A stretch of 33,712 bases of DNA from a virus, in the IMG/VR virus record IMGVR_UViG_3300005838_000003. The stretch is one strand, 5' to 3'. Shown in pieces: positions 1 to 33,712 of this stretch. Below the pieces are notes generated by a model. That model ran no database searches. It was not told the DNA's origin and saw nothing but the letters and a program-made list of their open reading frames with translations. Position numbers and translations under genes: made by a program. Every line of letters begins with the position of its first letter. The first letter of the stretch is position 1.

Positions 1-120
1 ATACCGTATCATTCATTATATAATACATATAGAAAAGTAATAGAAAGATTAAAAAAAATATTATGATAGAAAAATTATTAAGCAGAGTAGGAATTGAAGT
101 TTGGAAGGACATACCAGAAT
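1..120. repeat. Left copy of an exact 120-bp terminal direct repeat (identical to 33593-33712). It is either the assembly overlap of a circular/permuted genome or a true terminal redundancy.
   Basis: Compared base by base: both copies read ATACCGTATCATTCATTATATAATACATATAG...GGAAGGACATACCAGAAT. The repeat spans the 3' end of the sigma-like ORF and the 5' end of the HNH ORF, so the unique unit is 33592 bp. Confidence 0.95.
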
Positions 121-2720: not shown

Positions 2721-3430
2721 TATTATTAGTAGATGCAGATAGTTTAGTTTTTGCAAGTTGTTGTAGAACTAAAAACACTCCAGATGAATTTCCTTATTAT
2801 ACAAAAATTAATGATTCAATAAATAAGTTTGATGAACAGTTTATGAAAATTGTAAATGATTTAGAACAAAAATATGATATTGAAAAGGTGATTACGTTTA
2901 ATGGGTGTAAAGGTAATTTTAGAAAACAATTAACAAGAGATTACAAAGCTAATAGAAGAAATCAACCACTACCTCCATTGCTACACGATATACACCAGTA
3001 TGTAAAAGATACTTATAATAGTAAATTTGCTTTTGGTATTGAAACAGATGATATGGTTGCTAGATATTGGAAAACCTTAAGCCAAGAATTTGGTAGAGAT
3101 AATGTAATGATAGTCAGTATTGACAAAGATTACAAGCAGTTTCCTTGTTTAATGTATAATTATCACTATAAACATCAAGTAGTATTAGATATAAGCGAAC
3201 AAGAAGCATTATATAATTTCTATGAACAAATGATAATGGGAGATGTTGCTGACAATGTTAACTACTTTAAAGGAAAAGGTAAAAAATTTGCTGAAAAATA
3301 TTACAAAAATTGTACAACTAAGTATCAATATACAAAAAAACTTTACGAATTATTTAAACAAAAATATAAAAGTAAAGCTAAATTAAAGTATATTGAATGT
3401 TATAATTTACTAAAACTTAGGACAAGTTGA
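2717..3430 (+). CDS. 5'-3' exonuclease / flap endonuclease (PIN-like; T5 D15 / T4 RNase H / Pol I 5'-nuclease class)
   Basis: ILLVDADSLVF, FRKQLTRDYKANR, GIETDDMVA, IVSIDKDYKQ and MGDVADNV match the ordered acidic motifs of FEN-family 5' nucleases. Confidence 0.88.
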   Translation: MILLVDADSLVFASCCRTKNTPDEFPYYTKINDSINKFDEQFMKIVNDLEQKYDIEKVITFNGCKGNFRKQLTRDYKANRRNQPLPPLLHDIHQYVKDTYNSKFAFGIETDDMVARYWKTLSQEFGRDNVMIVSIDKDYKQFPCLMYNYHYKHQVVLDISEQEALYNFYEQMIMGDVADNVNYFKGKGKKFAEKYYKNCTTKYQYTKKLYELFKQKYKSKAKLKYIECYNLLKLRTS

Positions 3431-3431
3431 A

Positions 3432-3620
3432 ATGGATATTGAAGATTATTCTTATTATGTTAGATATAGAAATAATCTAACACAATTCATTATTCATAAC
3501 TGTAGTTATGCTAAAAACAAGAAAAGACTTAATAGAGTTAATTTTAATGAAAGAGAGTTATTATCTCTTTTAAAAGAATTAACAGAAATTAGTTTGTATA
3601 TTGAGAAAATAAATAAATAA
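3432..3620 (+). CDS. Hypothetical protein, 62 aa
   Basis: ORF track; starts 2 nt after the upstream stop. No motif. Confidence 0.6.
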   Translation: MDIEDYSYYVRYRNNLTQFIIHNCSYAKNKKRLNRVNFNERELLSLLKELTEISLYIEKINK

Positions 3621-3626
3621 TAAAAA

Positions 3627-3637
3627 TACGTTATATA
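3627..3637 (+). promoter_or_regulatory. Late box TACGTTATATA (copy 1 of 5), putative phage-sigma-dependent promoter core
   Basis: ACG at 3628 lies 13 nt before ATG 3641 (ParB-like gene). This copy has no TACAAAAT upstream half. Confidence 0.45.
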
Positions 3638-3640
3638 GTT

Positions 3641-4357
3641 ATGATACACCTAGTTAAGACTAATAAAATAAAAACAAACCCAAACAATCCAAGAATCATA
3701 AAGGACAATAAATTTAAAAAATTAGTTAAAAGTATTAAATATTTTCCTGAAATGTTAAAATTAAGACCTATTGTAGTCAACAAAGAAATGGTAGTACTTG
3801 GTGGGAATATGAGATTAAAGGCTTGTATTGATGCTGGACTAAAAGAAATCTGGGTAGCTAAGGCTGAGGATTTAACACCAGAACAAGAACAAGAATTTAT
3901 TATAAAAGATAATGTAAGTTTTGGAGAATGGGATTGGGATATAATTGCTAATGATTGGGACACTCAAGAAATAGAGGATTGGGGAGTTGATTTAATATTT
4001 TTTGACAAAAAAGAAGATGAATTAGATGAGAAATATTCTGAAAAAATAGGTCAAGTTACTTATGAACCTAAAGAATCAAATCATATACCAACTGATTTAT
4101 TTATAAAAGAAACTAAATTTGATAATGATATTGAAAAAATACAAAATAAAGAAATAAAAGAATTGTTAAAATTAAGAACTGCTTTTTTTACTAAGTTTAA
4201 ATTTTCAAAAATAGCTGACTATTATGCTTATCAAGCTAATGAGGAAGAAAAAAGAATATTTGAAAAGTTAGCATTAGTTTTATTAGATAAACATCAACTA
4301 ATAGAGAATGGATTTTCAGATTTAATAGAGGAACTAGGACATAAAGACTATGAATAA
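3641..4357 (+). CDS. ParB/Srx-fold N-terminal domain protein, 238 aa
   Basis: KTNPNNPRII and LRPIVVNKEMVVLGGNMRLKACIDAGLKEIWV match the NPR and GGxxR boxes. A W/D/E-rich linker FGEWDWDIIANDWDTQEIEDWGVD follows, like the linker preceding the methylase in ParB-methyltransferase fusions (recalled, not searched). No methylase domain is present. Confidence 0.85.
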   Translation: MIHLVKTNKIKTNPNNPRIIKDNKFKKLVKSIKYFPEMLKLRPIVVNKEMVVLGGNMRLKACIDAGLKEIWVAKAEDLTPEQEQEFIIKDNVSFGEWDWDIIANDWDTQEIEDWGVDLIFFDKKEDELDEKYSEKIGQVTYEPKESNHIPTDLFIKETKFDNDIEKIQNKEIKELLKLRTAFFTKFKFSKIADYYAYQANEEEKRIFEKLALVLLDKHQLIENGFSDLIEELGHKDYE

Positions 4358-5186
4358 AAAAATAAATACAATTTATATAATATCAAAAGGCAGACCAAAT
4401 TGTCGTACTGCTAAAACATTAACCAAAATGAATTATAAGGGTGATTGGTTTATTGTTTGTGGCAATAATGATGAAACTATTGAAAAATACAAATCAAACT
4501 GGGGAGAAGATAGAATTTTAATTTTCGATTGGTATGATGAAGTAAAAAAAAGTGATTTATTAGATAATTTTGGAGTAGAAAAAATGTCAAGTGGAGCTGT
4601 GCCTGTAAGAAATGCAACAAGAACTATTGCAGAAAATAGAGGAGAAATAAGACATTGGCAATTTGATGATGATTATAGTTCATTTTATCATATTAAAGAT
4701 AATAAGAAAAATTGGTTTAAATTAAATGGAGAACAATTTGAAAAGGAAATATATAAATTAGCAGAGTATGCAGATAGATGCAAATTAGCAAATATAGGTT
4801 TTGCAGTTGCTTCTGATACAAGACCTGAAATGATACATAATGTAGGACACAGAGTTTTTAATGCTCATAATATGCCAACAGATTTAAACTTATTTACTGA
4901 GTGGAAAAGCAGAATGAATGATGATTTAATAAATGCTATTGAAACTTATAGAAAAGGTGATTACGAATTATTTGTAAAATATATGAATATACAAATGCCA
5001 CCAACTCAATCTGAAGGTGGAGGAAATACAGATATATATTTATTAGATGGTACTGTAAGAAAAGCTGCGTATGCTATTATGATAGAACCTAAAAATGTTA
5101 AGTTAACTATAATGCACGGAAGGTATCATCATAGAGCAAATTGGTCAGGAATCATTCCTAAAGTTATACACAGCAAATATGCTTAA
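4350..5186 (+). CDS. Hypothetical protein, 278 aa; candidate GT-A-type glycosyltransferase
   Basis: N-terminal strand-like TIYIISKGRPN and an acidic WQFDDDYSSF (DxD-like) about 100 aa later. It overlaps both neighbours by 8 nt. The fold assignment is a guess; the ORF itself is solid. Confidence 0.35.
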   Translation: MNKKINTIYIISKGRPNCRTAKTLTKMNYKGDWFIVCGNNDETIEKYKSNWGEDRILIFDWYDEVKKSDLLDNFGVEKMSSGAVPVRNATRTIAENRGEIRHWQFDDDYSSFYHIKDNKKNWFKLNGEQFEKEIYKLAEYADRCKLANIGFAVASDTRPEMIHNVGHRVFNAHNMPTDLNLFTEWKSRMNDDLINAIETYRKGDYELFVKYMNIQMPPTQSEGGGNTDIYLLDGTVRKAAYAIMIEPKNVKLTIMHGRYHHRANWSGIIPKVIHSKYA

Positions 5187-6279
5187 AGTAGATTATTTAA
5201 TTGTAGGTGCAGGATTTTATGGTTCTATTTTAGCTTATAATGCTAAAAAAAAAGGATATAAATGCTTAGTAATAGATAAAAGAAATCATATTGCAGGTAA
5301 TTGCTATACCTTTACTAAAGATAATATTGATTTCCATAAATATGGTCCTCATATATTTCATACAGATGACAAAGAAGTCTGGGAATTTATAAATAAGTTT
5401 ACCGATTTTAATAATTATATTAATTCTCCGTTAGCAGTATATAAAAAAAAATTATATAATTTGCCATTTAATATGAATACGTTTTATCAATTATTTAATA
5501 CATACAATATTGATGAAATAAATAATATTTTAATTAAAGAAAAAGAAAAATATAAAAATATAAATCCAAGCAATTTAGAAGAACAAGCATTAAAATTAGT
5601 TGGTGATACTGTTTATAATACTTTAATAAAAGGATATACAGAAAAACAATGGGGTAGAAACTGCACTGATTTACCTGCTTTTATAATTAAAAGATTGCCA
5701 GTTAGATACACATTTGACAATAATTATTTTAATGATAGGTTTCAAGGAATCCCAATAAATGGATACACCCCTATATTTAAAAAACTATTAGAAGGAATAG
5801 AAGTAAAATTAGACACAAGTTATAAAGAAATAAAAGATAAGATTCAATATAAAAAATTAATTTATACAGGAATGATAGATGAATTCTATGATTTTTGTTT
5901 TGGTAAATTAGAGTATAGAAGTTTAAACTTTAAACATAAGACATTAGATACTAAAAATTATCAAGGCAATGCAGTAATAAATTATACAGAAAAATCAATA
6001 CCTTACACAAGAATTATTGAACATAAACATTTTAATAAAACTAAAGAATCAGATAAAACAATAATAAGTTACGAATACTCTGAAGAATATAATGGAACTA
6101 ATGATGCTTACTATCCTATTGGATTAAATAAAAATAAAATAATATATAATAAATACAAAGAATTATCTAAAGAAAATCCTAATATTATATTTGGAGGTAG
6201 ATTAGGAGATTATGCTTACTATGATATGGATGATATTATTAAAAAAGCATTAGATAAATCTAAAGAAATATTAAATTAA
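5179..6279 (+). CDS. glf: UDP-galactopyranose mutase
   Basis: DYLIVGAGFYGS (FAD Rossmann), GPHIFHT, SPLAVYKKKLYNLPFNMNTF, IKGYTEKQWGR, LPAFIIKRLPVRYTFDNNYFNDRFQGIP, LEYRSL, QGNAVINYT..PYTRIIEHKHF and FGGRLGDYAYYDMDD are co-linear with bacterial Glf as I recall it. Confidence 0.95.
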   Translation: MLKVDYLIVGAGFYGSILAYNAKKKGYKCLVIDKRNHIAGNCYTFTKDNIDFHKYGPHIFHTDDKEVWEFINKFTDFNNYINSPLAVYKKKLYNLPFNMNTFYQLFNTYNIDEINNILIKEKEKYKNINPSNLEEQALKLVGDTVYNTLIKGYTEKQWGRNCTDLPAFIIKRLPVRYTFDNNYFNDRFQGIPINGYTPIFKKLLEGIEVKLDTSYKEIKDKIQYKKLIYTGMIDEFYDFCFGKLEYRSLNFKHKTLDTKNYQGNAVINYTEKSIPYTRIIEHKHFNKTKESDKTIISYEYSEEYNGTNDAYYPIGLNKNKIIYNKYKELSKENPNIIFGGRLGDYAYYDMDDIIKKALDKSKEILN

Positions 6280-6281
6280 CT

Positions 6282-6653
6282 ATGAACAAAACCGAACACC
6301 ATAAAAAAGCATTATTAGAAGCACTTAGAAAAAGTTTAGGAATAGTAACAAATGCCTGTGAAAGAGTAGATGTAGGAAGAACAACATATTATGAATGGTA
6401 TAATAATGATGAGGATTTTAGAACTAAAGTAGATGATTTACAAAATATAGCTTTAGACTTTGCTGAAAGCCAACTACATAAACAGATAGCAAAACAATCA
6501 ACTGCAGCTACTATTTTTTATTTAAAAACAAAAGGAAAGAAAAGAGGATATATAGAACGTCAAGAAATCACAGGAGCAGATGGAGTGCCTACTAATTTTA
6601 AAATTGAGATAATTGACAAAACAGAAGATGTCCGAACTCCCGATACAGACTAA
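6282..6653 (+). CDS. terS: Terminase small subunit (HTH type)
   Basis: LGIVTNACERVDVGRTTYYEWYNNDEDFRTKVDDLQNIALDFAESQL...AATIFYLKTKGKKRGY is the typical HTH small-terminase pattern. It sits directly upstream of, and overlaps, terL. Confidence 0.75.
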   Translation: MNKTEHHKKALLEALRKSLGIVTNACERVDVGRTTYYEWYNNDEDFRTKVDDLQNIALDFAESQLHKQIAKQSTAATIFYLKTKGKKRGYIERQEITGADGVPTNFKIEIIDKTEDVRTPDTD

Positions 6654-7791
6654 TATTGTTTATAAACATCTTGTAAATAGTAATAAAAAAATAGTTGTAG
6701 AACAAGGGGGTACTCGTTCAGGTAAAACATATAATATTCTTTTATTTATAATATTTTACTATTGTTTTAATAATACAGGTAAAATTATAACTATCTGTCG
6801 TAAAACATTTCCAAGTTTACGAGCAACAGTATTAAGAGATTTTTTACAGATACTTAGAAATAAAAAAATATACAAAGAGCAATTTCATAATAAATCAAAT
6901 TCAGAATATAATTTATTTGGAAACCTTATTGAGTTTACTTCACTTGACCAATCACAAAAGATTAGAGGAAGGAAAAGGGATTTACTTTTTATTAATGAAG
7001 CTAACGAACTTTACTGGGAAGACTGGCAGCAGCTTATCTTTAGAACTCAAGAGAGAGTAATATTAGATTTCAACCCATCAGATGAGTACCATTGGATATA
7101 CGATAAGATATTACCAAGAGAAGACTGTGAGTTTCATAAAACAACTTACTTAGACAATCCTTTTATAGAAGATGTAATAAGACAAGAAATTGAAAGACTA
7201 AAAGAAACAGACGACCAATATTGGCAGATTTATGGATTAGGAGAAAGGGCATCAAGTATTAATACAATATTTAAATATGTTGAGATTAAACAAATACCTA
7301 TTGATGCTAAGTTAATAGCATACGGAATGGACTTTGGTTACTCAACTGACCCAACTACCCTTGTATCAGTTCATAAGAGTAATTATGACCTGTATATAAA
7401 AGAATATTTATACAGAACGCAAATGACAACGCAAGACATTAATGTATTTCTAAAAGAACAAAACCTATTAAGAAATCCTATCTATGCTGATTCTGCTGAA
7501 CCTCGTTTAATTGCTGAACTTAGAAGAATGGGTCATAATATATTTCCAAGTTTAAAAGGACCAGATTCAATAAGAGCAGGAATTGATTTATTAAAAAGAT
7601 ATAAATTACACATCACATCCGACTCAACAAATGCTATACTTGAATTTAGAAACTATAAATGGAAAGAAGATAGAAGTGGCAAATTAATTAACGTTCCTGA
7701 AGATAAACATAATCATATAATCGACCCTTGTCGCTATGCTACTTACTCTTTATTATCAAGACCAAACTTTGGGAAGTATGCCATACAATAA
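6628..7791 (+). CDS. terL: Terminase large subunit (PBSX/Terminase_3-like)
   Basis: Walker A GGTRSGKT and Walker B LLFINEANE. Nuclease acidic motifs GMDFGYSTDPT, IYADSAEPRLI and HIIDPCRYA. ATG 6628 preferred over the track's TTG 6613. Confidence 0.93.
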   Translation: MSELPIQTNIVYKHLVNSNKKIVVEQGGTRSGKTYNILLFIIFYYCFNNTGKIITICRKTFPSLRATVLRDFLQILRNKKIYKEQFHNKSNSEYNLFGNLIEFTSLDQSQKIRGRKRDLLFINEANELYWEDWQQLIFRTQERVILDFNPSDEYHWIYDKILPREDCEFHKTTYLDNPFIEDVIRQEIERLKETDDQYWQIYGLGERASSINTIFKYVEIKQIPIDAKLIAYGMDFGYSTDPTTLVSVHKSNYDLYIKEYLYRTQMTTQDINVFLKEQNLLRNPIYADSAEPRLIAELRRMGHNIFPSLKGPDSIRAGIDLLKRYKLHITSDSTNAILEFRNYKWKEDRSGKLINVPEDKHNHIIDPCRYATYSLLSRPNFGKYAIQ

Positions 7792-7903
7792 AACTTGTAA
7801 AAAATGTAATAATGAGTATAGTTATATAGGTTCAGCACAGAATGGTTTTATGTGGTATTGTAGAAAATGTAACCATATAGAGTGGGCACCTAACAAAAAA
7901 TAA
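7778..7903 (+). CDS. Mini-ORF, 41 aa, zinc-ribbon-like (CKKC...CRKC)
   Basis: Translated manually: MPYNKTCKKCNNEYSYIGSAQNGFMWYCRKCNHIEWAPNKK. Its ATG lies 14 nt inside the terL 3' end in another frame. Two CxxC pairs. Confidence 0.45.
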   Translation: MPYNKTCKKCNNEYSYIGSAQNGFMWYCRKCNHIEWAPNKK

Positions 7904-7910
7904 CCAATAT

Positions 7911-7983
7911 ATTTTTTAGTTTAATATATTTTATATATATTTGTTGTATATCAATAATTAAGTTAATATAAAAAACAAACAAA
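7911..7983 (+). promoter_or_regulatory. Promoter-leader repeat, copy A (contains TATATTTG at 7936-7943)
   Basis: Aligns by eye with 8861-8932. Shared blocks are TTTAGTTTAATATAT, TATATTTG and AGTTAATATAAAA..AACAAACAAA immediately before the ATG. Confidence 0.6.
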
Positions 7984-8145
7984 ATGGATGTATATAAAAA
8001 CGCAAAGTTAATTGGAAAAGCAATAGGGAATTTAGAATCTCTTAAAAAATATGCTGACTTACCAGCTTATCAAAAAGAGTGGCTAAAAGACGCTTTAAAT
8101 GCTATTAAGTTAGTTGATTATATTAACCTACAAGATAATTTTTAA
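7984..8145 (+). CDS. Mini-ORF, 53 aa (MDVYKNAKLIGKAIGNLESLKKYADLPAYQKEWLKDALNAIKLVDYINLQDNF)
   Basis: Translated manually. It is the first ORF after promoter-leader copy A and ends 1 nt before ATG 8147. Confidence 0.55.
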   Translation: MDVYKNAKLIGKAIGNLESLKKYADLPAYQKEWLKDALNAIKLVDYINLQDNF

Positions 8146-8860: not shown

Positions 8861-8932
8861 ATTGTTTAGTTTAATATATATTTTGTATATTTGATATATA
8901 TTACTAATAAGTTAATATAAAATAACAAACAA
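8861..8932 (+). promoter_or_regulatory. Promoter-leader repeat, copy B (contains TATATTTG at 8886-8893)
   Basis: See copy A. The distance from the TATATTTG start to the ATG is 47 nt here and 48 nt in copy A. Confidence 0.6.
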
Positions 8933-9866: not shown

Positions 9867-9896
9867 AGGTGCTTAGAAATAAGCACCTTTTTTTTT
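9867..9896 (+). terminator. Rho-independent terminator
   Basis: AGGTGCTTA-GAAA-TAAGCACCT forms a perfect 9-bp stem with a GAAA loop, followed by a run of T to 9896. Confidence 0.9.
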
Positions 9897-9928
9897 ACAT
9901 TAAATTCTCTAATTAAATACGTTATATA
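9896..9928 (+). promoter_or_regulatory. Late box copy 2: TACATTAA-N15-ACGTTATATA
   Basis: ACG at 9919 lies 13 nt before ATG 9932, immediately downstream of the terminator. The upstream half is degenerate and spaced 15 rather than 12 nt. Confidence 0.5.
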
Positions 9929-9931
9929 AAT

Positions 9932-10582
9932 ATGGAAGTTAAATTAACAATACCAAATAATTTAAGTGAGATTACACTTAAGCAATATAAAAAATACCTA
10001 ATAATAGGTGAACAAAATGATGATGTTAATTTCATACAAGCTAAGATGATTGAAATATTCTGTGGTATTAGTCATAAACTTGCAACGATGATGAAATACT
10101 CAGACGTTGAAGAAATTACAGGAACCATTAATAAAATGTTTTTACAAAAACCTAAATTAGTAACCACATTTAAAATGAATGGAAAAGAATATGGTTTTAT
10201 TCCTGATTTAGATGATATGACTTTAGGAGAATATATTGATTTGGATTCTTATTCAGGTGATTATGAAAATATAGAAGTTGCAATGAATGTTTTATATAGA
10301 CCTATTGAAGCAAAACTAAATGGCAAATATTCAATTAAGAAATATAATCCTGAAACAAAAAATGAAATGTTAGAGATGCCAATGGATGCAGTTATTAGTT
10401 CTTTGTTTTTTTTTCTGAATTTAGGACTGGAATTGTCGGAAATTACCCTGAACTCTTTGGCGAAGCCACAAATAACACAGTTGGAGGAGTACAAGCATTT
10501 TCAGCAAAATATGGATGGTATCAAAGCCTTTTTGCCTTATCTGCAGGAGACATTATCAGATTTAAAGATATCACTCAACTAA
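9932..10582 (+). CDS. Frame-0 product (216 aa) of a putative tail assembly chaperone-like gene
   Basis: ORF track. First gene of a late unit. It contains a T9 run at 10406-10414 where a second frame opens. Stopping at 10582 leaves an atypical 82-nt gap before the next gene. Confidence 0.6.
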   Translation: MEVKLTIPNNLSEITLKQYKKYLIIGEQNDDVNFIQAKMIEIFCGISHKLATMMKYSDVEEITGTINKMFLQKPKLVTTFKMNGKEYGFIPDLDDMTLGEYIDLDSYSGDYENIEVAMNVLYRPIEAKLNGKYSIKKYNPETKNEMLEMPMDAVISSLFFFLNLGLELSEITLNSLAKPQITQLEEYKHFQQNMDGIKAFLPYLQETLSDLKISLN

Positions 10583-16921: not shown

Positions 16922-16951
16922 TACAAAATTAAATTTTAAATACGTTATATT
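16922..16951 (+). promoter_or_regulatory. Late box copy 3: TACAAAAT-N12-ACGTTATATT
   Basis: ACG at 16942 lies 13 nt before ATG 16955 (protease). Confidence 0.55.
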
Positions 16952-17729: not shown

Positions 17730-17759
17730 TACAAAATTTAAAATTAATCACGTTATATA
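17730..17759 (+). promoter_or_regulatory. Late box copy 4: TACAAAAT-N12-ACGTTATATA
   Basis: ACG at 17750 lies 17 nt before ATG 17767 (scaffold). Confidence 0.55.
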
Positions 17760-17766
17760 AATAATT

Positions 17767-18387
17767 ATGAAATCTACTGAAATGTTAAACCAAATCAAGA
17801 CACTTTTAAATATAGAAGTAAAACTTGAAGAAATGAAATTAGAAAACGGTACAAGAGTTGAAGCTGAATCTTTTGAAAAAGGAAAAGAAGTTTTTATCCT
17901 TACAGATGATGAGCGTGTTGCTTTACCTGTAGGGGAATATATTCTTGAAGACTCAAGATTATTAGTTGTAGAAGAAGAAGGAATTATTGGTGATGTTAGA
18001 GAAGTATCTGACGAAGTGCCAGAAAAAGAAGATGAAGAAATTACTTCTGACTTAGAAGAAAAAGAAGCAGAGGTTGGAGATTGGGCAGGAATGGAAAAAA
18101 GAATCCAGAACCTTGAAGATGCAATCGCAGACTTAAAAGGTGATAAAGAAAGTAAAATGGAAGAAGACCTTGAAGAAGAAGTTGAAGGAGTTTTAAAATC
18201 AAGAACAGTAAAAGAAGAATTTACTGAAGTTGAAGAAAAAGTAAAAGAAGAATTATCTCAACCATCTTCACAACCAATTAAACATAGTCCAGAATCTAAA
18301 AAATCAGAAAAGCCAAGAGGATTTTTATATTCTCAAAATAGAACAGGAACAGCTTTAGATAGAGTTTTATCAAGATTAAACAAATAA
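17767..18387 (+). CDS. Scaffolding protein (acidic, helical)
   Basis: Very E/D-rich, for example EVPEKEDEEITSDLEEKEAE and EEDLEEEVEG. It lies between the protease and the major capsid gene. Confidence 0.65.
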   Translation: MKSTEMLNQIKTLLNIEVKLEEMKLENGTRVEAESFEKGKEVFILTDDERVALPVGEYILEDSRLLVVEEEGIIGDVREVSDEVPEKEDEEITSDLEEKEAEVGDWAGMEKRIQNLEDAIADLKGDKESKMEEDLEEEVEGVLKSRTVKEEFTEVEEKVKEELSQPSSQPIKHSPESKKSEKPRGFLYSQNRTGTALDRVLSRLNK

Positions 18388-20489: not shown

Positions 20490-20519
20490 TACAAAATAAC
20501 TTATTTAATACGTTATATA
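20490..20519 (+). promoter_or_regulatory. Late box copy 5: TACAAAAT-N12-ACGTTATATA
   Basis: ACG at 20510 lies 14 nt before ATG 20524. Confidence 0.55.
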
Positions 20520-33160: not shown

Positions 33161-33658
33161 GTGTTATCGAAAATATTTAAAAAACATAAAATTTGGATTA
33201 ATATTGTTTCATCTTTTGGCTGTAATAAAGATACAGCAGAAGATATTGTTCAAGAAATGTATATTAAAATTCAAAAAAATATTAATAATGGTTTAGACAT
33301 AACTTATGATGATGACTATAATTATTTTTATATTTTTAAAACATTAAAAAGTATGTTTTTGGATTTAAAAAGAAAAGAAAGCAAAATACAAATAATTAGT
33401 ATTGATGATATAAATCAAAAAAACACTTTAAAAAATACAGGGAAAACAAAAGAAAATGAAAACCCTATTAAATATAGTTATTATTATAATGAAGTATTAA
33501 AAGAATTAAATAAAATGTATTGGTACGATAAAAAGGTTTTTGAATTAATAGATGATGGAACATCAATAGCACAATTATCTAGAAAAACTAAAATACCGTA
33601 TCATTCATTATATAATACATATAGAAAAGTAATAGAAAGATTAAAAAAAATATTATGA
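33161..33658 (+). CDS. ECF-like sigma-70 family factor, 165 aa, GTG start
   Basis: Region 2-like DTAEDIVQEMYIKIQKN...YFYIFKTLKSMFLDLKRKE. Region 4 HTH-like VFELIDDGTSIAQLSRKTKIPYHSLYNTYRKVIERLKKIL. Its last 66 nt lie in the terminal repeat. Confidence 0.6.
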   Translation: MLSKIFKKHKIWINIVSSFGCNKDTAEDIVQEMYIKIQKNINNGLDITYDDDYNYFYIFKTLKSMFLDLKRKESKIQIISIDDINQKNTLKNTGKTKENENPIKYSYYYNEVLKELNKMYWYDKKVFELIDDGTSIAQLSRKTKIPYHSLYNTYRKVIERLKKIL

Positions 33659-33712
33659 TAGAAAAATTATTAAGCAGAGTAGGAATTGAAGTTTGGAAGG
33701 ACATACCAGAAT
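33593..33712. repeat. Right copy of the exact 120-bp terminal direct repeat (identical to 1-120)
   Basis: See the left copy. The window ends at the point corresponding to base 120. Confidence 0.95.

Follow-up and report, generated by a model that had tools for sequence, protein, structure and literature searches.

A candidate ParB-associated galactofuranosylation cassette upstream of the terminase genes in a small circular phage genome

Introduction

The viral sequence IMGVR_UViG_3300005838_000003 (IMG/VR; 33,712 nt, analysed over its full length and referred to here as the window) carries, at positions 3,641–6,279 and directly upstream of its terminase genes, three chained genes that encode a ParB-like protein, a glycosyltransferase (GT) and a UDP-galactopyranose mutase (Glf). 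We propose that this cassette serves the late, ParB-assisted galactofuranosylation of phage DNA, a reading to which we assign a probability of about 50%. That the three genes form one functional glycosylation unit, whichever polymer they act on, is considered probable.

In the proposed scheme, the cassette would have been inserted just upstream of terS/terL in a siphovirus of the marine Flavobacteriaceae type. Glf, identified at the level of its family, would turn host UDP-galactopyranose into UDP-galactofuranose (UDP-Galf), and the GT, a GT-A enzyme of the TAGT (TET-associated glycosyltransferase) family, would use UDP-Galf to galactofuranosylate a polymer, both donor and acceptor being predicted. 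By analogy with ParB-dependent phage thymine dioxygenases, the GT would have an obligate partner in the ParB-like protein, which would activate it or hold it on double-stranded DNA (dsDNA). The target would most likely be newly replicated phage DNA just before or during packaging, and the modification would shield this DNA from host nucleases.

The original prediction, made from the nucleotide sequence, had offered three options: a ParB-guided galactofuranosyltransferase acting on phage DNA around packaging, glycosylation of virion proteins, or late remodelling of host glycans. The first, with DNA as the putative acceptor, is the best supported, because the GT belongs to a family of DNA glycosyltransferases (TAGT), because its adjacency to a ParB-like gene is deeply conserved, because the same ParB N-domain is fused to DNA methylases elsewhere, and because a phage ParB-like protein activates a DNA-modifying enzyme on dsDNA (PMC13229309).

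Results

A TAGT-family glycosyltransferase paired with a full-length Glf

The 278-aa protein is a TAGT-family GT-A enzyme, as judged from profile matches and a predicted structure. It matches Pfam PF20691 (TAGT; 60.8 bits against a cutoff of 27.5, E 2.3e-16, residues 8–216) and phrog_842 (3e-29), and PF20691 is carried by 120/120 of the homologues listed. A model built from 42 homologues (predicted local distance difference test score 88.9; predicted template modelling score 0.89) has PDB glycosyltransferase neighbours that are all of the GT-A fold, at template modelling (TM) scores of 0.4–0.5 and with no close solved structure. These include LH3, ColGalT1, GnT-I, mimivirus R699 and the galactofuranosyltransferases GlfT2 and GfsA. 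Against viral predicted structures, the model matched TAGT proteins (TM ~0.8, E 3e-22), and it compares with a T6-type beta-glucosyl-HMC alpha-glucosyltransferase (HMC, hydroxymethylcytosine; the protein of Klebsiella phage PKO111) at TM 0.67. The earlier description of this protein as a GT-A-like transferase can therefore be made more specific, and the two features on which it relied, the IYIISKGR strand and the DxD-like FDDDY, are invariant family motifs in the alignment. Seven residues (R87, D106, D107, N190, D192, R258 and H261) are each conserved in 39/39 aligned homologues, with or without an adjacent ParB gene, the alignment including the ParB-less TAGT of the T4-like Aeromonas phage Aeh1; D108 is invariant within the window's GT clade. 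The published TAGT motif is R...DDD...EDY/F, the third element of which is only approximately matched here, by N190-D191-D192-L. The protein is basic (isoelectric point (pI) 8.9) and has no membrane segment. Outside prophages, cellular genomes hardly ever carry a member of its family (6 loci among 185,579 species genomes). The complete genome encodes no GT besides this protein, and viral Glf genes elsewhere almost always lie beside a GT, so its earlier designation as the sole furanosyltransferase candidate stands; we propose it as the galactofuranosyltransferase of the cassette.

The mutase had been called full-length, and this was confirmed. Glf matches PF03275 at 1.7e-78, plus NAD_binding_8, scores above the equivalog cutoff of NCBIfam TIGR00031 (397.5 bits vs 303.75) and aligns end to end, over residues 4–365, with the solved UDP-galactopyranose mutases (UGMs) 4mo2 (2.6e-132) and 1i8t (4.5e-130). 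The N-terminal FAD-binding GxGxxG is present as VGAGFYG at residues 9–15, and the GC content at third codon positions is like that of the remainder of the genome. Glf has His in HIFHT and Lys in FIIKRLPVR, as does E. coli UGM, whereas the C. jejuni enzyme 4mo2 has Arg at both positions; these two residues are presumably the determinants of N-acetylgalactosamine specificity in C. jejuni. Outside the cassettes, the nearest relatives of Glf are cellular (~60% identity), and because these are as close as the Glfs of other cassettes, Glf was probably recruited into cassettes more than once.

We also ran the comparison in reverse, starting from the 76 additional viral contigs whose Glf is most closely related and considering 5 kb around Glf. 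A ParB-like gene lay within this distance in 6/76 and a TAGT-like GT in 4/76. The flanks of the other 70 mostly held other GTs (GT2 variants, GT11, GT17, GT25, GT92, DUF4422), epimerases and methyltransferases. As a phage Glf is thus nearly always found beside a transferase, this supports the adjacent TAGT protein as the galactofuranosyltransferase. The use of a phage Glf as a diagnostic of the ParB–GT cassette was rejected, given that only 6/76 lie near a ParB-like gene. In the search for fusion proteins, long Glf matches (P0242–P0245) were also set aside, being internally duplicated Glf sequences that are probably assembly artefacts. In Aeromonas phage Aeh1, no annotated Glf lies within ~8 kb of the TAGT gene, and the two co-occur at the level of the genome only. 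A different arrangement was seen in five loci (L099, L102, L111, L112 and L130), where Glf (~5000–6100) is directly followed by a ParB-like gene (~6100–7200) and a TAGT-like GT was weakly detected 1–2 kb downstream or undetected.

A ParB-like protein with the architecture of an enzyme activator

The product of the first gene has a nucleotide-binding-type N-domain (residues 1–120) with an acidic W/D-rich segment, a disordered linker (122–138) and, in the model, a helical C-domain (~140–222). It matches phrog_620 (7e-27) and phrog_498 (2e-25); phrog_940, annotated as a nuclease, and other ParB-like nuclease PHROGs also match. On the single sequence, Pfam ParB_N reached 19.7 bits, under its cutoff of 26.3. 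The family profile matches the CTP-binding ParB 7bnk (E 2.5e-6), the segments NPxNPR, GGNMRLKA and KDN align to ParB boxes I, II and III (QPR, GERRWRA and ENLQ), and the model superposes on the CTP-gamma-S-bound ParB 7bnr at 2.6 Å over 100 residues. Profile and fold thus both bear out the ParB/Srx N-domain that had been proposed. Within the otherwise variable linker, Y141 and P143 are conserved.

The C-domain was confidently modelled and gave 0 structural matches, none of the hits extending beyond residue ~130, and no helix-turn-helix (HTH) or other recognisable DNA-binding domain was found in the protein by structure comparison. The complete genome encodes no ParA-type protein, and positions 3300–8000 hold no parS-like palindrome, only two trivial AT-rich ones. 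A partition ParB of the ParABS type was considered, as the N-domain fold and the boxes are those of ParB, and rejected because there is no HTH domain, no ParA gene and no parS-like site. The protein instead has the architecture of the phage ParB proteins that activate DNA-modifying enzymes, as judged from its sequence and model: a nucleotide-binding domain and a C-domain, no DNA-binding domain, and a gene that overlaps that of its putative client by 8 nt.

The ParB N-domain and W/D-rich linker had also been said to precede a DNA methyltransferase domain in other phages. This architecture is real: residues 2–138 align with the N-terminus of phrog_498, annotated as a DNA methyltransferase, and fusions occur in two of the collected loci (L046 and L069). 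These comprise two ParB-N::N6_N4_Mtase fusions and one ParB-N::PAPS-reductase (DndC/IbrA-like) fusion (L046:341-1570; L069:797-2062; L069:3785-5107), and the loci that hold them also hold a separate ParB–GT pair.

Conservation and mobility of the ParB–GT core

To place the cassette, 79 loci from IMG/VR, 10 from public phages or metagenomes and 6 from cellular genome assemblies were collected. The first two sets (89 loci) were scored with iterated profiles and, with a 90% identity threshold, reduced to 61 GT clusters. Of the 56 clusters with upstream sequence, 40 have a ParB-like gene immediately 5' of the GT and 47 have one within 2 kb; in the window's own clade (GT at least 48% identical), adjacency is complete (17/17). 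Adjacency is retained at GT identities as low as 22% and among phages with unrelated types of terminase, with start–stop overlaps of 3–34 nt between ParB and GT in most loci, and the pair recurs in the archaeal virus HHTV-2, in Lactobacillus phages c5 and phi-jlb1 and in E. coli Rac-type prophages. Glf is found inside the cassette in 12/61 clusters, 11 of them among the 18 of the window's clade, in the order GT–Glf (10 clusters) or Glf–ParB–GT (2 clusters). Identities to the window's proteins co-vary, both for GT and ParB (rho 0.65) and for GT and Glf (rho 0.81).

TerL and portal types vary widely among the phages that carry the cassette, TerL often being unrelated, and in the nearest phage isolate the backbone genes come in the same order with no cassette. 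By comparison of these loci, the ParB–GT core with its optional accessories is a mobile cassette, to which Glf is a recurrent but optional addition. GTs with and without a cassette Glf interleave on the tree and no alignment column segregates with Glf, so donor specificity is not readable from the sequence. A search for GT residues that would mark the presence of Glf found none, its gain and loss being unaccompanied by changes in GT residues. The pattern fits, and does not prove, a role for Glf in donor supply that is dispensable where the host makes UDP-Galf.

Several other accessories were observed beside the core. DNA N6/N4 methylases are found there, and in six loci (L042, L077, L062, L061, L050 and L053, at ~position 6000) a lone ParB-like gene is followed by a tandem array of two to four TAGT-like GT paralogues, an arrangement suggestive of an oligosaccharide assembled step by step. 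Two neighbouring ORFs (open reading frames) of ParB–GT cassettes match Pfam RGP (PF03214), to which the UDP-arabinopyranose mutases of plants belong; either a further accessory for furanose-donor supply or a divergent GT may be represented.

Operon layout and a box shared with the virion genes

The coordinates of the cassette and its surroundings are collected in Table 1. ORF analysis reproduced the chaining described in the original prediction: the ParB/GT and GT/Glf junctions are overlaps of 8 nt each (ATGAATAA and ATGCTTAA), followed by a 2-nt gap and a 26-nt overlap. The gene after Glf matches phrog_4044 (5e-8), with Pfam HTH_Tnp_1_2 and Sf6_terminase under their cutoffs, and its assignment as the small terminase subunit is supported by its place directly before TerL. 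For TerL, the start at 6628 was taken from gene calls in sister contigs; the longest-ORF rule would use a TTG at 6613.

Table 1. Cassette genes, adjoining terminase genes and candidate regulatory signals in the window
Feature	Position	Strand	Remarks
ParB-like gene	3641..4357	+	238 aa, ParB/Srx fold
TAGT-family GT gene	4350..5186	+	278 aa, PF20691
Glf gene	5179..6279	+	366 aa, PF03275/TIGR00031
Probable small terminase subunit	6282..6653	+	123 aa; weak matches and position directly before TerL
Large terminase subunit	6628..7791	+	Terminase_3 1.8e-22, Terminase_3C 3.3e-22, phrog_2 2.9e-42
Shared box, copy 1 (core ACGTTATAT)	3628..3636	+	Ends 4 nt before ATG of ParB-like gene
Shared box, copy 2	9919..9927	+	Before ORF 9932-10582, first gene of virion-gene half
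Shared box, copy 3	16942..16950	+	Before prohead protease gene (16955)
Shared box, copy 4	17750..17758	+	Before ORF 17767-18387
Shared box, copy 5	20510..20518	+	Before ORF 20524, gene preceding portal gene
Intrinsic-terminator-like hairpin	9867..9888	+	9-bp stem then T run; first + strand one downstream of cassette

The "late box" that had been noticed in front of the cassette proved to be a real repeated element. Its core, ACGTTATAT, occurs in 5 exact copies against 0.31 expected, a count reached in 0/100 shuffles, and all copies are on the + strand and end 4–8 nt 5' of an ATG, with the consensus (A/T)AAT(A/C)ACGTTATAT. The cassette shares it with only four other gene starts, all in the virion-gene half. 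Between 3641 and 7903 there is no further ACGTTATAT copy and no + strand terminator, and the hairpin listed in Table 1 marks the limit of the longest possible transcription unit from 3628. As far as the sequence goes, then, one cis-signal is common to the cassette, terS/terL and the virion genes. Given how near the motif is to the ATG, it may act as the promoter of almost leaderless mRNAs, or else as a signal for translation or RNA processing. We infer late timing of the cassette from the company that the box keeps with virion genes, and the related cassette of E. coli prophages, which sits in the late operon after the lysis genes, supports such timing.

Two intergenic elements of ~75 nt, 86% identical to each other, lie 3' of TerL (7904–7983 and 8861–8932). 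Both carry TATATTTG, which resembles the Bacteroidota -7 promoter box, and end in AAGTTAATATAAAA...AACAAACAA immediately 5' of a small ORF. As promoters of host type, they probably drive the small ORFs between TerL and the virion genes.

A complete circular genome with a likely marine Bacteroidota host

The first 120 nt of the window (1–120) are identical to the last 120 nt (33593–33712), and three independent metagenomic contigs span the circular junction at identities of at least 98.6%. With this terminal overlap and these contigs reading over the junction, the window is a complete genome and a closed circular assembly of ~33,592 bp. All of its genes are on one strand, and its first 62 nt are the 3' end of the ORF at 33161–33658. 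Among 50,697 phage records, the only relatives of the portal protein were those of the Nonlabens (marine Flavobacteriaceae) siphoviruses P12024S/L (36% identity), and close homologues originate from Tara and other metagenome assemblies; for these reasons, a marine Bacteroidota host is likely. A megablast of 3641–7791 against the same records gave 0 matches, the relatives being found at the protein level only.

Some further genes of the window were noted. The ORF at 33161–33658 weakly resembles an ECF-type sigma factor (TIGR02937, 26 bits, under cutoff), and Nonlabens phage P12024S encodes a Sigma70_r2 protein at the corresponding site 5' of TerL. The sigma-like protein of the window is a candidate reader of the ACGTTATAT box. 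Overlapping the end of this gene at the circular junction is a NUMOD4/HNH homing-endonuclease-like gene (63–563), of which sister contigs hold variants of 166 aa and 171 aa. Upstream of the cassette, positions 1293–1712 encode a 139-aa cytidylyltransferase-like protein (PF01467) that resembles TagD and RfaE domain II and falls under both equivalog cutoffs. The same family also occurs 332 nt upstream of the TAGT gene in L039/L040 (from a 177-kb contig), and no transferase matching the cytidylyltransferase-like protein was found in the window's genome.

Discussion

The missing acceptor and other points against a DNA target

Several observations weigh against phage DNA as the target. The first is that the complete genome encodes no homologue of TET/5mYOX, of ThyA or another thymidylate synthase or of dCMP hydroxymethylase, and no C5-methylase or DNA polymerase. 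The absence of a hydroxymethylase or TET-like gene, already a caveat of the original prediction, thus now holds for the closed genome. The scan for acceptor-making enzymes applied Pfam, PHROG and NCBIfam to the main ORFs of at least ~70 aa, and the ORFs outside it are all 75 aa or shorter, too short for such enzymes; a dioxygenase or hydroxylase hidden among the unassigned ORFs was also sought with Pfam and PHROG in this size range and none was found. With no acceptor-making enzyme or DNA polymerase encoded, the phage should replicate canonical DNA from host pools. The flanks of the related cassettes agree: among the families matched by at least two of 148 genes flanking ParB–GT cassettes (21 singleton families lie outside this count), there is no TET, thymidylate-synthase homologue or C5-methylase. 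In a 2023 preprint, GT-A contigs without TET or ThyS partners were regarded as less obviously DNA-directed, and ~65% of phage GT-A/GT-B contigs had no TET or ThyS neighbour, their acceptors being left unexplained (bioRxiv 10.1101/2023.12.21.572611).

The partner proteins add to this side of the balance. The ParB-like protein is acidic (pI 5.1) and is the one described above as having no DNA-binding domain. We found no ParB–GT or GT–Glf fusion protein, and no ORF was matched by both the ParB and the GT profiles. ParB-like genes are rare beside viral Glf genes at large, as the reverse comparison showed. In four distant cassettes, a radical-SAM enzyme with a SPASM domain (330–392 aa; L044:4989-5981, L069:6809-7819, L076:3713-4891 and L080:2662-3765) abuts the ParB–GT pair, in the orders ParB–rSAM–GT, ParB–GT–rSAM and rSAM–ParB–GT; it is not present in the window. 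Its role could be acceptor-making, sugar tailoring or peptide modification, and SPASM enzymes often modify peptides. Finally, the superfamily of the GT also holds GREB1, a eukaryotic relative that O-GlcNAcylates protein (O-GlcNAc, O-linked N-acetylglucosamine; PMC7968844).

A DNA target on canonical DNA would call for unusual chemistry. All characterised DNA glycosylation pathways, to our knowledge, first install a hydroxyl handle (5-hydroxymethylcytosine (5hmC), 5-hydroxymethyluracil (5hmU) or 5-hydroxycytosine (5hoC)), and we know of no Leloir glycosyltransferase that acts on canonical DNA. ADP-ribosyltransferases such as DarT and pierisin do attach sugars to canonical DNA bases. That a ParB–TAGT pair attaches Galf directly to a canonical base or to another native group of DNA, with no hydroxylase involved, appears to us rather improbable. 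If it were true, it would represent a new class of DNA modification chemistry, one that, with other sugars, would also extend to the E. coli ynaK cassettes described below and to Lactobacillus and archaeal viruses.

Alternative explanations

Because the genome offers no known route to a hydroxylated base, glycosylation of protein retains some probability as the main rival, although we regard it as clearly the less likely outcome. Late in infection, the cassette would then place Galf on Ser, Thr or Tyr of a virion protein, a packaging protein or the ParB-like protein itself, the latter serving as adaptor, chaperone or substrate. A complete genome without a DNA acceptor-making enzyme, the protein-modifying GREB1, the radical-SAM/SPASM genes in distant cassettes and the box shared with virion-region genes all fit such a role, as do the conserved Y141 and P143 of the ParB linker and the pairing of Glf elsewhere with many ordinary GT families that are unlikely to act on DNA. 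Set against this, the conserved ParB-fold partner recurs fused to or paired with enzymes that act on DNA (PMC13229309), the phage TAGT members that have been characterised or proposed act on DNA-linked groups (PMC13390438), and no candidate acceptor protein co-varies with the cassette, which, in phages with unrelated structural modules, adjoins the terminase rather than genes for capsid or tail. If protein were nevertheless the target, this GT family would have to be redefined.

Two further explanations dissolve the three-gene unit and fit less well with the conserved coupling and with a late, soluble, phage-restricted GT. In one, which we hold to be improbable, GT and Glf are a pair of auxiliary metabolic genes whose products remodel host glycans or small molecules, such as envelope precursors, and so change the surface or metabolism of the host late in infection; the ParB-like gene is then a mere neighbour. 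Glf is classically a cell-wall or O-antigen enzyme and was so read in phage Atu_ph04 (PMC6630229), in most viral cases it adjoins transferases of the GT2, GT11, GT17 or GT25 type as in polysaccharide loci, and the nearest relatives outside the cassettes are cellular. The GT of the window, however, is soluble and belongs to a family restricted to phages, the cassette of temperate E. coli phages sits in the late operon and is not expressed from the lysogen, and the conserved overlap and co-variation with ParB would be left unexplained. Less probable still, in our view, is a ParB-like protein that acts independently of the GT and aids packaging or partition (as a nuclease, for example, or as a helper at the pac site or of the terminase), the two genes merely sharing an insertion hotspot before the terminase. 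ParB-like genes are indeed common beside terminases, the pre-terminase slot also houses methylases, and the nuclease PHROGs named above match the protein; but the short overlaps, the adjacency that outlasts divergence of both GT and terminase, the co-variation of ParB and GT identities and the lack of a ParA gene or parS-like palindrome all speak for a coupled pair, and ParBs of this kind have been shown by experiment to serve the adjacent enzyme (PMC13229309).

We therefore retain ParB-assisted galactofuranosylation of phage DNA as the preferred reading. Whether a phage evades a given restriction or CRISPR system is determined by its DNA hypermodification, which is also a source of enzymes for biotechnology. 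Also at stake is whether the principle of a ParB activator extends from dioxygenases to glycosyltransferases.

Comparison with known systems

The ingredients of the cassette have precedents: the TAGT family, its association with ParB, a ParB activator and a phage Glf for DNA glycosylation are each already known or predicted. Two statements must accordingly be corrected. The original prediction knew of no characterised phage system with Galf in any of the three roles, yet the Glf of Rhizobium phage RL38J1 has been proposed to provide the UDP-Galf with which 5-hydroxycytosine is glycosylated, galactose first (Lee et al, 2026; PMC13326640). Likewise, the idea that ParB acts at packaging is not new: a role for ParB in directing the machinery of DNA modification at this stage was put forward by Iyer et al (2013), according to the citation in PMC8256090.

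The known scheme of phage DNA O-glycosylation combines an acceptor-making enzyme, a GT and, optionally, a sugar-supply gene. Here the GT (at the family level) and the sugar-supply gene are present and the acceptor-making enzyme is absent genome-wide, as is the genomic link of TAGT genes to a TET/JBP dioxygenase or a pyrimidine hydroxymethylase or hydroxylase, which was not found in the 33.6-kb genome. The cassette may operate in a similar manner, yet it is not classed among the known pathways (T-even 5hmC, RB69/DLP3 5hoC-arabinose, RL38J1 5hoC-Gal and TET-GT).

RL38J1 and the Pootjesviridae (PMC13326640) resemble the window in having a phage Glf clustered with DNA glycosylation genes, with galactose proximal to the base. 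They differ in being ~158-kb contractile-tail phages with a ThyA-homologue 5-hydroxy-dCMP (5hodCMP) synthase, GTs identified by other structural matches and no ParB partner described, whereas the window phage has a genome of 33.6 kb, no ThyA homologue or DNA polymerase, and a TAGT GT overlapped by a ParB-like gene.

The closest parallel for the ParB-like protein is the partner of the thymine dioxygenase 5mYOX176, a ParB-like protein with a nucleotide-binding and a C-terminal domain and no DNA-binding domain that is required for activity on dsDNA (O'Toole et al, 2026; PMC13229309). In both systems, a small ParB-like gene lies beside that of a DNA-modifying enzyme (a putative one in the window), in the published one often near GT and terminase genes. 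The residues mutated in ParB176 (N14, R16, S29 and R56) correspond by position, with an offset of +2, to N16, R18, S31 and R58 of the window protein, which are invariant in the family alignment. The client differs, being an iron/2-oxoglutarate-dependent dioxygenase that makes 5hmU in one case and a GT with no dioxygenase in the other. A covalent version of such a pairing is seen in the ParB-N::DNA methyltransferases of phrog_498, in which the same ParB module and W/D-rich segment (residues 2–138) are joined to a late DNA-modifying enzyme; these proteins transfer methyl groups to canonical bases, whereas the window has a separate polypeptide and a GT.

On the side of the GT, TET-linked GT-A enzymes glycosylate 5hmC (PMC8256090; bioRxiv 10.1101/2023.12.21.572611). 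The GT-A enzymes associated with TET/5mYOX share with the window protein the TAGT family, the GT-A fold, the R...DDD motif and ParB and terminase neighbours, and they act on DNA after replication. In those clusters, the hydroxyl is made by a C5-methylase and TET, or by ThyS, and the nucleotide-sugar pool of E. coli served as the source of the donors that were tested; the window cassette has neither acceptor-making enzyme and carries its own gene for a Galf donor. TAGT of T6-like phages has been assigned the second glucosylation of glucosyl-5hmC (PMC13390438). This T2/T6 beta-glucosyl-HMC alpha-glucosyltransferase (Tequatrovirus) is the classical functionally assigned member of phrog_842 and acts on DNA-linked glucose. 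It differs in its substrate, glucosyl-5hmC made by way of the T-even dCMP hydroxymethylase, in its use of UDP-glucose, in having no ParB partner and in its low identity to the window GT.

A homologous cassette is found in E. coli Rac-type lambdoid prophages, where ynaK, with a ParB/Srx N-domain, overlaps a TAGT-like gene annotated as a "GREB1-related protein" directly before terS/terL. Its GT is ~26% identical to that of the window, there is no Glf, and K-12 keeps a truncated remnant (ynaK, ydaY). The full-length pair of ynaK and GT is present in 889/5,426 complete E. coli genomes (~16%; e.g. NZ_CP033378.1 2597963-2599679; L090:6196-7912), and a search for functional literature on ynaK found none. 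The combination of ParB, TAGT and Glf in a minimal genome without a hydroxylase is not described in the literature searched, and a Galf-based modification system would be a first for a small phage. Together with its ynaK homologue, the cassette provides a compact test case for what "orphan" TAGT enzymes glycosylate.

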